Assembly: GCA_049322615.1 (NCBI GenBank)
Contig: JBMORX010000009.1
Location: 57,120 to 121,119, forward strand
Length of the DNA: 64,000 nt
Reading direction: 5' to 3'
DNA from: Patescibacteria group bacterium
Lineage (GTDB): Bacteria > Patescibacteriota > Microgenomatia > CAYGWK01
The notes beneath the pieces are model-generated. The model had not been told where the DNA came from, did not search any database, and saw nothing but the letters and a program-made list of their open reading frames with translations. Numbering within the stretch: position 1 is the first letter of the stretch; every line of letters begins with the position of its first letter. Shown piece by piece: positions 44,058 to 44,218 of this stretch. The position numbers were made by a program, and so were the translations under genes.

Positions 44058-44218
44058 GCGGGAGTAGTTCAGTAGTAGAATAGCCCCGCACCAATGCGGC
44101 AGTAGTTCAGCGGTAGAATGTCTCCTTGCCAAGGAGAAGGTCGCCGGTTCGAGTCCGGTCTGCCGCTCCAGAATATGGTGCGGGGAGGTCGCGGGTGCGA
44201 ATCCCGTCTCCCGCTCCA
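44058..44218 (+). pseudogene. decayed tRNA split at its anticodon loop (5' half 44058-44091, 3' half 44176-44218) with an intact tRNA-Gly(GCC) embedded between the halves
   Basis: outer acceptor GCGGGAG/CTCCCGC pairs perfectly; outer T loop mutated to TGCGAAT; extended stem CCCCGCACCAAT/ATATGGTGCGGGG encloses the inner gene. Confidence 0.6.
44096..44170 (+). tRNA. tRNA-Gly(GCC) with encoded CCA
   Basis: acceptor GCGGCAG/CTGCCGC, anticodon loop TTGCCAA, T loop TTCGAGT. Confidence 0.85.

Follow-up and report, generated by a model that had tools for sequence, protein, structure and literature searches.

A group I intron occupies the anticodon loop of cyanobacterial tRNA-Leu(UAA), and the phage T4 SegB gene is a free-standing homing endonuclease gene located in a tRNA cluster. 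Small palindromic mobile elements include miniature inverted-repeat transposable elements (MITEs), the Rickettsia palindromic elements, repetitive extragenic palindromes and bacterial interspersed mosaic elements (REP/BIME), and the GC clusters of mitochondria. Integrative elements, as Williams reportedly described in 2002, attach at tRNA genes and rebuild the 3′ portion of the gene they enter. In the bulge-helix-bulge motif, a 4-bp helix at the exon-intron junctions lies between two bulges of 3 nt each. The archaeal tRNA-Trp intron carries a box C/D RNA, and split and permuted tRNAs are processed at bulge-helix-bulge motifs (review, PMC3978253). In Patescibacteria, group I introns have been found at position 35/36 of tRNA-Asn and tRNA-Asp (Nakagawa et al. 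2026, PMC13011429). Here, we analyzed a 64,000-nt stretch of contig JBMORX010000009.1 (the window), a chromosomal piece from a Patescibacteria group bacterium of the candidate phyla radiation (CPR), in which a complete tRNA-Gly(GCC) gene lies inside the frame of another tRNA-Gly gene at 44058-44218. We think it probable that a non-autonomous tRNA cassette with inverted-repeat boundaries invaded the resident tRNA-Gly(GCC), disrupting this gene and taking over its function.

The outer component of 44058-44218 is a tRNA-Gly frame with an acceptor, a D arm, a T arm, and CCA, and a 102-nt hairpin cassette (44084-44185) stands where the 17-nt anticodon stem-loop of this frame would be. The cassette is a 10-bp stem, CCCCGCACCA/TGGTGCGGGG, with a canonical tRNA-Gly(GCC) at its tip. 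Read along the + strand, the 5′ part of the outer gene (44058-44083) comprises the acceptor strand GCGGGAG (44058-64), TA, the D arm GTTC-AGTAGTA-GAAT (44067-81), and AG (44082-83). The left cassette arm CCCCGCACCA follows with the 2-nt linker AT (44084-44095), then the inner tRNA with its encoded CCA (44096-44170; ARAGORN and the Rfam tRNA model), and then the 3′ linker GAATA with the right arm TGGTGCGGGG (44171-44185; from the fold and a comparison of three lineages). The 3′ part of the outer gene (44186-44218) consists of the variable loop AGGTC, the T arm GCGGG-TGCGAAT-CCCGT, the acceptor strand CTCCCGC, T, and CCA. The tRNA makes up 75 of the 102 nt and the non-tRNA part 27 nt; no open reading frame (ORF) was found inside 44084-44185. 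The minimum-energy fold of the 161 nt recovers the outer acceptor, D, and T helices together with the enclosing helix (−69.9 kcal/mol, z −3.7; equally stable shuffles, 0/200). An initial annotation of this DNA had described a perfectly paired outer acceptor and an intact outer D arm, and both descriptions hold: 44058-64 and 44208-14 form 7/7 pairs, followed by T and CCA, and the D helix is present in the fold. The same annotation placed the inner tRNA within a helix of roughly 12 bp; the helix is real and is shorter, with 10 contiguous Watson-Crick pairs (44084-93 with 44176-85).

The intron mode of ARAGORN missed the outer genes of the intact window and instead returned chimeras between distant tRNAs. 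We therefore adopted a delete-and-rescan screen, in which each ARAGORN tRNA of the window was removed in turn and the region was scanned again. Following deletion, a tRNA spanning the junction appeared only at 44058-44218 and at a neighboring nested locus (44994-45208), and at none of the other 12 window tRNAs. A separate screen, which searched the sequence on either side of each tRNA for tRNA halves, performed no better than its shuffled control, since neighboring conserved tRNAs match each other, and it was not used as evidence. A Logan contig from run SRR32167786 (L001) is 100% identical to the window over 4835 bp spanning both nested loci, so the arrangement is present in a second assembly.

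To place the outer gene, we retrieved syntenic loci (numbered with the prefix L) through the adjacent gene for a family-5 solute-binding protein (SBP); four further look-ups of this kind mostly ended at contig breaks near the tRNA array. Two of these loci, L085 and L086 (SBP identity 69% and 65%, respectively), carry an uninterrupted gene of the outer type at the same array position. The L086 Gly(gcc) gene reads GCGGGAGTAGTTCAGGAGTAGAACGTTTCCTTGCCAAGGAAAAGGTCGCGGGTGCGAATCCCGTCTCCCGCTCCA; its last 33 nt equal window 44186-44218 (AGGTC...CTCCCGCTCCA, 33/33 nt), and its 5′ part is near-identical to 44058-44081. The outer 5′ part also agrees at 24/24 nt with the 5′ end of an uninterrupted tRNA-Gly(GCC) that serves as cargo in L203. 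An exact-pattern scan of metagenomes, with the outer T arm plus acceptor as the query, gave at least 123 matches, and 117 of the 123 listed were complete uninterrupted tRNA-Gly genes (at least 117). Because of the uninterrupted orthologues in L085 and L086 and the at least 117 uninterrupted genes that share the T arm and acceptor, the outer frame is, by homology, the resident tRNA-Gly(GCC) of the lineage. Since both outer parts are homologous to uninterrupted tRNA-Gly genes, chance is excluded as the source of the frame.

These comparisons overturn the view of the initial annotation that the outer gene is a decayed tRNA with a mutated T loop. All outer stems are intact and unchanged across three lineages, and the TGCGAAT loop (G where U55 is usual) is, judged from the listed matches, native to the tRNA-Gly of this lineage and no decay product. 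Only the 17-nt anticodon stem-loop has been lost. Decoding needs an anticodon stem and its 7-nt loop, and the frame has neither, positions 27-43 being taken by the cassette. Systematic splice variants of the outer gene yielded no consistent anticodon, and the Rfam tRNA model called no match on the outer frame. The outer acceptor keeps the Gly identity pairs, U73, and CCA.

TGC T loops, with G55 replacing the near-universal U and mostly without the D-loop GG, are normal for tRNA-Gly in many of these CPR genomes (for instance L086 12756-12830, L085 12120-12194, and at least 117 loci among L087-L206). They also occur in tRNA-Phe (L083) and tRNA-Cys (L097, L130). Staphylococcal non-ribosomal tRNA-Gly species have T loops resembling the TGC form; unlike those species, the TGC-loop genes here appear to be the regular Gly genes of their arrays. 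In L151 (− strand, around the match 2843-2866), we observed an orphan tRNA-Gly(CCC)-like 3′ half comprising the anticodon stem-loop, T arm, and acceptor strand, with no recognizable 5′ half nearby.

The inner gene (44096-44170) is, by our scans, a canonical bacterial elongator tRNA-Gly(GCC). ARAGORN calls it tRNA-Gly(gcc) with a score of 121.8, and it reaches 69.4 bits with the Rfam tRNA model (cut-off, 29); at this locus, both programs detect the inner tRNA only. Together with the homology of the outer halves to intact genes, this bears out the central observation of the initial annotation, namely a tRNA-Gly(GCC) with encoded CCA between the halves of another tRNA. The identity set of the bacterial glycyl-tRNA synthetase (G1:C72, C2:G71, G3:C70, U73, C35, C36) is complete in the inner tRNA, as read from GCGGCAG...TTGCCAA...CTGCCGC-T-CCA. 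The inner tRNA is 98.6% identical to the inner tRNAs of L082, L083, and L183 and 92% identical to a free-standing Gly(GCC) of L002. Its similarity to the outer gene is 76-85% across shared parts. The two differ in type: the inner tRNA has the canonical TTCGAGT T loop and GG in the D loop, and its nearest relatives are Gly genes of other lineages.

We screened about 200 related loci with ∼650 tRNAs by delete-and-rescan and a complementary-flank search, and inspected the matches by eye and by folding. This revealed ∼15 independent nested events in related Microgenomates-type CPR bacteria, involving about ten tRNA types, so the recurrent process that had been suggested from two loci is supported. 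The cargo is Gly(GCC) in the window, L082, and L083 (one event) and in L203; Gly(UCC) in the window and in L093=L119=L159; Pro(UGG) in L085, L183, and L082; His in L085; Val(UAC) in L087; Val(GAC) in L202; Ile(GAU) in L167, downstream of a 16S rRNA gene; Ile(UAU) in L172; Lys(CUU) in L195; and Cys in L130 and L189. Wherever the outer identity is readable, the cargo is cognate, is co-oriented with the outer gene, and lies in its anticodon arm or loop. Similar cassettes with different cargo have entered the anticodon arm or loop of cognate tRNAs many times in related CPR bacteria. All inner tRNAs scanned with Rfam were above the cut-off, and no other RNA family was found at the gathering score in the 13 other nested loci. 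The outer genes range from clean insertions (the second window locus, L093) to nearly erased ones (L202 Val, L085 His, and the Cys 5′ halves of L130 and L189). The type of the outer gene at 44058-44218 is the cargo in L203, and the Pro tRNA nested in L183 is of the type that forms the outer Pro gene in L085. Two different cassettes have invaded the resident tRNA-Pro gene in L082 and L183; in the window, this gene is intact. Former cargo types are later found as invaded residents, and therefore tRNA genes turn over. At L356 7305-7870, adjoining the same SBP gene, tRNA-His fragments are split by a small hairpin, CCCTCCGAATCGGAGGG, beside a partial ORF, which may be another form of tRNA-gene disruption.

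Most inserts start with YCCCG(Y)A and end with the complement (CGGGR), forming inverted-repeat arms. These conserved junction features, together with the tRNA-derived outer parts, answer the refutation test set by the initial annotation, which had suggested comparing the two nested loci for shared flank motifs. The CCCCGCACCA end is found on the window Gly and L183 Pro cassettes, the TCCCGCACCA end on the L082 and L083 Gly cassettes, and CCCCGTAA, CCCCGTTAA, or CCCCGTACA followed by ATTT on the Pro cassettes of L085 and L082, the Val cassette of L087, and the Gly cassette of L203; L202 has CCCCGCCAAA and L195 has TCCCGCA. In the window, YCCCGYACC was observed six times against 0.44 expected. 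A 101-nt GC-rich hairpin at 21613-21713 has the ends CCCCGCACCA...TGGTGCGGGG and holds no tRNA. It adjoins a 65-nt hairpin with the ends CCCCGCA...TGCGGGG (21720-21784), and the pair, upstream of a DUF5660 gene, folds with −106 kcal/mol (z −7.9). No Rfam family matched the hairpins at 21613-21784, and BLAST found no copies of the window hairpin elements, or of the spacer between tRNA-Phe and the outer gene, in all fetched loci. A 66-nt CCCG...CGGG hairpin related to 21720-21784 lies on the + strand at 43459-43524, in the D loop of a tRNA-Leu 5′ fragment (43443-43458). This fragment is just upstream of the present tRNA-Leu(CAG) and matches the resident Leu(CAG) type of L083, so that an L083-type fragment precedes an L082-type complete gene (43443-43538).

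Judged by these copies, the ends of the cassette are those of a family of small palindromes in which some members have a tRNA on board and others do not. Since the same arms flank Gly cargo in the window, Pro cargo in L183, and the non-tRNA hairpin 21613-21713, they derive from the element and not from the target. This corrects the initial reading of CCCCG/CGGGG as the old anticodon stem. Terminal inverted repeats common to several copies, as in MITE-like elements, are present as 10-bp perfect arms. Two origins were considered and gained no support. A two-step origin, with the hairpin first and the tRNA later, was pursued by searching for empty hairpins in anticodon loops, which gave only three unrelated intron-like cases. 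A phage origin was pursued with two arm-pattern scans of viral contigs; 0 of 149 loci had a tRNA between the arms, and the matches were chance matches.

The second nested locus (44994-45208, + strand) shows the same arrangement in a fresher state. The halves of a resident tRNA-Gly(TCC) (44994-45030 and 45170-45208) surround an insert composed of a hairpin (45031-45062), arms (45065-79 and 45154-69), and an inner tRNA-Gly(TCC) (45080-45153). The insert sits at anticodon-loop position 37/38, with the CTTCCAA loop otherwise intact, and begins with a GCCCG...CGGGC hairpin. When joined, the outer halves give a tRNA-Gly(tcc) with a score of 112.4. At this clean insertion (45030/45171), any target-site duplication amounts to at most a 1-nt ambiguity. 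The shell has lost its CCA and has a changed T loop. The outer gene is uninterrupted in L086, L088, L114, and L183, and the inner type is an ordinary free-standing resident gene in L147, L195, and others. Its fold (z −6.2) agrees with that of 44058-44218, so the initial annotation was right in giving the two loci one architecture. It was also right about their relative age. The nested unit of 44058-44218 is also present in L082 (SBP 78% identical to the window) and in L083/L183 (75%), with 76% between the SBPs of L082 and L083, so that the three lineages are about equidistant. The Gly(TCC) nesting was found in the window genome only, among the loci compared, and the L183 gene is uninterrupted; by this distribution, the nesting at 44058-44218 is the older of the two.

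If a cassette did invade the resident tRNA-Gly(GCC), the locus could work as follows. The array would be transcribed as one precursor, in which the arms would form a stem and so keep the inner tRNA apart from the outer halves, which are 76-85% similar to it. Cleavage by RNase P and maturation at the 3′ end would then release the inner tRNA as the decoding tRNA-Gly(GCC), and the outer frame, unable to decode because it has no anticodon, would persist as a tRNA-shaped shell. The cognate nature of the cargo could arise in two ways: only insertions that bring a substitute for the destroyed essential single-copy gene may be viable, or homology between cargo and target may guide insertion. The mobilizing enzyme is not encoded in the cassette; candidate routes are transposition in trans, endonuclease-triggered homing, and DNA uptake followed by recombination with the conserved array as homology.

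Several observations weigh against this interpretation. The genome, of which the window covers 64 kb, may hold further Gly(GCC) genes besides the inner one. The 26 outer bp are all intact in three lineages whose inter-tRNA spacers cannot be aligned, so the frame is better conserved than expected of a dead gene. This points to selection acting on the shell or to a lateral spread in recent times. In several cassettes, the part that replaces the anticodon stem spans precisely positions 27-43, an odd geometry for random insertion followed by decay. Lastly, neither a mobilizing enzyme nor a target-site duplication was found, and near-identical genomes gave no polymorphism between empty and filled alleles; mobility is therefore inferred from distribution only. 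The ORFs flanking seven nested loci share no recombinase or nuclease by Pfam, and no transposase was found near these loci, bar one weak HTH_23 ORF in L087.

In the main rival explanation, the nested unit is a functional composite RNA and selection keeps the outer tRNA-shaped shell. The shell might be a scaffold presenting the inner tRNA to RNase P and 3′ nucleases, or a two-piece, anticodon-less glycine acceptor or decoy acting outside translation. All 47 bp of the nested structure are intact in the three lineages at SBP identities of 75-78%, and 46 are invariant. The only stem difference is a compensated one (C-G, U.G, U-A) at the end of the cassette stem, and the other differences are confined to the two D loops and the 3′ linker, which is the most variable stretch. 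Spacers between neighboring tRNAs of the same arrays are not alignable. In L082 (3603-3645) and L083 (9410-9450), but not in the window, the shell holds an additional GC-rich hairpin of 41-43 nt, which follows the variable loop and precedes the T stem and leaves every stem unbroken. The exact start of the cassette stem at 27/43 in several independent cases and the glycine identity elements retained by the shell acceptor also fit a composite RNA. The shell clearly departs from neutral decay, which would fit either selection acting on the RNA or the lateral spread of the complete nested unit. However, covariation at three sequences is not significant (336/500 shuffles reach the observed value), and by our own count over the three lineages, the avoidance of paired positions by changes is only marginal (p ∼0.03-0.06). 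Shells are plainly decaying at L085 His, L130 and L189 Cys, and L202 Val, the shell of 44994-45208 is altered, relatives do with an uninterrupted gene, and tRNA-Gly is extremely conserved in these bacteria anyway. We consider this explanation unlikely.

The array also contains units in which an endonuclease gene accompanies a tRNA. At 44219-44242, directly downstream of the nested locus, is a 24-nt 5′ fragment of the resident tRNA-Leu(TAA), which matches the L083, L085, and L086 gene. An HNH endonuclease ORF follows (44291-44767); it is fused to another tRNA-Leu(TAA), which is complete (44761-44851) and whose 5′ end contains the stop codon of the ORF. HNH homologues and a Leu 5′ fragment occur at the same position in L097 and L189, and 44219-44851 looks like a homing unit that replaced tRNA-Leu from the D loop onward. 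At 45234-45333, an exact 21-nt copy of the tRNA-Arg(TCT) 5′ end is followed by ∼80 nt with a 19-bp hairpin and a 12-mer, GAGCTTGACCAT. The same 12-mer stands in the HNH gene (44645-44656), where it encodes the ELDH motif, and 45234-45333 probably derives from an HNH unit that preceded the current tRNA-Arg (45334-45408) and is now a relic. Elsewhere in the window, the − strand of 20480-20961 carries a tRNA-Val-like 5′ fragment with a CCCG...CGGG hairpin in the D loop. An 88-aa GIY-YIG ORF (20560-20826, − strand; Pfam 1.9e-15) ends inside the complete tRNA-Val(GAC) (20508-20582), and just downstream of the latter is a further D-arm fragment followed by CCCG (20480-20507). A second GIY-YIG-like ORF lies at 33480-33996 between tRNA-Arg(TCG) and tRNA-Lys(CTT), with the tRNA D-arm fragment AGCTCAATTGGATAGAGC just before tRNA-Arg(TCG); in L195, the Arg-Lys pair has a nested tRNA-Lys.

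Such replacement units, which are active in this array, raise the prospect that the cassette itself moved by homing, whereby a nuclease makes a double-strand break in the resident tRNA gene and repair from a nested donor allele uses the outer halves as homology arms, the nuclease gene having since been lost or acting in trans. This would address how the cassette moves, not what it is. The endonuclease-plus-tRNA replacement of tRNA-Leu(TAA) in the same array, its recurrence in two other loci, the HNH relic before tRNA-Arg(TCT), and the GIY-YIG gene abutting tRNA-Val(GAC) are in its favor, and a near-identical nested unit across diverged lineages is the expected product of co-conversion. Nevertheless, none of the nested cassettes has an ORF or ORF relic, the endonuclease events leave a 5′ fragment and a new tRNA rather than complementary halves around a cargo, and the divergence of the linker implies that any spread was not very recent. 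We regard homing as quite improbable.

Splicing was weighed as well. If the insert were a true intron, removed by self-splicing or by a bulge-helix-bulge endonuclease and a ligase, both the outer and the inner tRNA would be functional. The inserts of 44994-45208 and L093 at or beside 37/38 of an intact anticodon loop would suit this, as would the good tRNA-Gly(tcc) formed by the joined halves of the former, and Patescibacteria commonly have group I introns in the anticodon loops of their tRNAs (PMC13011429). At 44058-44218, however, splicing could not restore a decoder because the anticodon loop is gone. Group I or II matches are absent at E ≤1 in 43000-46500 and at the gathering score in the 13 other nested loci, and the small non-tRNA part of the insert likewise speaks against an intron. 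The folds show an uninterrupted 10-bp helix at 44058-44218 and a three-way junction at 44994-45208, without a bulge-helix-bulge; the host is a bacterium by its gene context (UvrC, SecG, SBP); and RNase P and Z cuts would leave the arms attached. An intron is thus already contradicted for 44058-44218, and we find it very improbable overall. A local accident, be it a tandem tRNA-Gly duplication with deletion or an assembly chimera, would account for inner and outer genes that are both tRNA-Gly and similar, yet it is hardly credible and, on the comparative data, already contradicted: the inner tRNA is of a different type, the outer halves are complementary, tRNA-derived parts of one gene and not repeats, the junction features are conserved, with arms common to other cargos and genomes, and the locus is identical in the second assembly and also present in ENA and JGI contigs of other species.

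The nested loci are embedded in a tRNA array on the + strand (43539-45498) with the conserved order Leu(cag), Leu(gag), Val(tac), Phe, Gly(gcc), Leu(taa), Pro, Gly(tcc), Arg(tct), His and the conserved neighbors UvrC-holin-SecG-SBP. The window also encodes a transglutaminase-like protein. The best UvrC relatives among GTDB species genomes are from Patescibacteria metagenome-assembled genomes (≤44% identity), and the SBP relatives bear Microgenomates-group names. A consensus scan gave a promoter-like site at 43401-43429 (+ strand; TTGATT, 17 nt, TATAAT, with an upstream TG) and no terminator-like site within the array. Relative to the SBP gene, the array is inverted in the window and L086 compared with L082, L083, L085, and L002. 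The tRNA-Val and tRNA-Phe of the window are strongly unlike those of L082 and L083 despite the same array order. Beside the array, 38000-42600 has a GC content of 32-33% versus ∼40% and is possibly an acquired island. A DNA methylase and a DUF3800 protein are encoded there, along with a weak HepT-like match and several ORFs without a family. We found no integrase among ten neighboring ORFs tested and no direct-repeat pair flanking the insert within 43400-45600, where the repeats reflect the mutual similarity of the tRNA genes.

Extending the proposed invasion of the resident tRNA-Gly(GCC) to the other loci, we tentatively propose, with slightly less than even confidence, an unrecognized class of bacterial element: inverted-repeat-bounded, whole-tRNA cassettes that enter the anticodon arm of the cognate resident gene, take over its function and thereby become indispensable, and drive ongoing replacement by foreign tRNAs in CPR bacteria, with a shell that may be retained for a separate function, for instance as a processing scaffold or anticodon-less acceptor. 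If true, this would be a new route for the in-place invasion and replacement of essential RNA genes. Such a cassette would be hard to lose because it destroys a gene and supplies the substitute at once. It would also explain why neighboring CPR genomes with the same array order have very different versions of the same tRNA. As a self-contained tRNA on a processing stem, the cassette would be of practical interest for tRNA expression from arbitrary contexts, and a conserved shell without an anticodon would make one ask whether tRNA-shaped RNAs have functions other than decoding in minimal-genome bacteria. Genome annotation is concerned too, as the usual tRNA finders detect the inner gene only and intron-aware modes yield false chimeras. 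Within the incomplete full-text coverage of PubMed Central and bioRxiv, we found no published description of a nested or tRNA-in-tRNA arrangement, only group I intron work.

Compared with the systems introduced above, the cassettes resemble group I introns in their insertion in the anticodon loop or arm, in their frequency in the same phylum, and in hiding the interrupted gene from standard tRNA finders. They differ in that they have no ribozyme core, the 102-nt insert being mostly tRNA, and in that they bring a replacement gene rather than removing themselves. As in archaeal introns, a tRNA gene houses a functional small RNA at position 37/38 or close to it, and flanking helices define the processing sites; here, by contrast, the host is a bacterium, there is no bulge-helix-bulge, the embedded RNA is a complete cognate tRNA, and the outer gene is not restored. 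Homing endonucleases, both SegB and the HNH and GIY-YIG units with tRNAs in the window, are likewise selfish insertions in tRNA genes that bring their own tRNA copy and leave fragments beside intact genes. Unlike them, the nested cassette has no ORF, keeps both target halves around its cargo, is bounded by inverted repeats, and enters the anticodon arm instead of the D loop. Integrative elements also target tRNA genes, often in the anticodon loop, and their carried sequence preserves a functional tRNA. They do so with direct repeats of the 3′ segment, kilobases of DNA, and an integrase, whereas the cassette, for which neither direct repeats nor an integrase were found, carries a whole tRNA in 100-140 nt inside the gene. 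In form, the cassette resembles palindromic elements, which are short, GC-rich, hairpin-forming, and non-autonomous, have conserved ends, are present more than once in a genome, and may lie within genes for RNAs. The window also holds cargo-less copies with the cassette ends. The cassette differs from them in carrying a cognate tRNA, and a target-site duplication and partner transposase were not found here. We know of no MITE, Rickettsia, REP, or GC-cluster element that carries a tRNA gene or targets a cognate tRNA gene. Taken together, none of the compared systems combines whole cognate tRNA cargo with insertion in the anticodon arm, as the nested tRNA-Gly(GCC) at 44058-44218 does.

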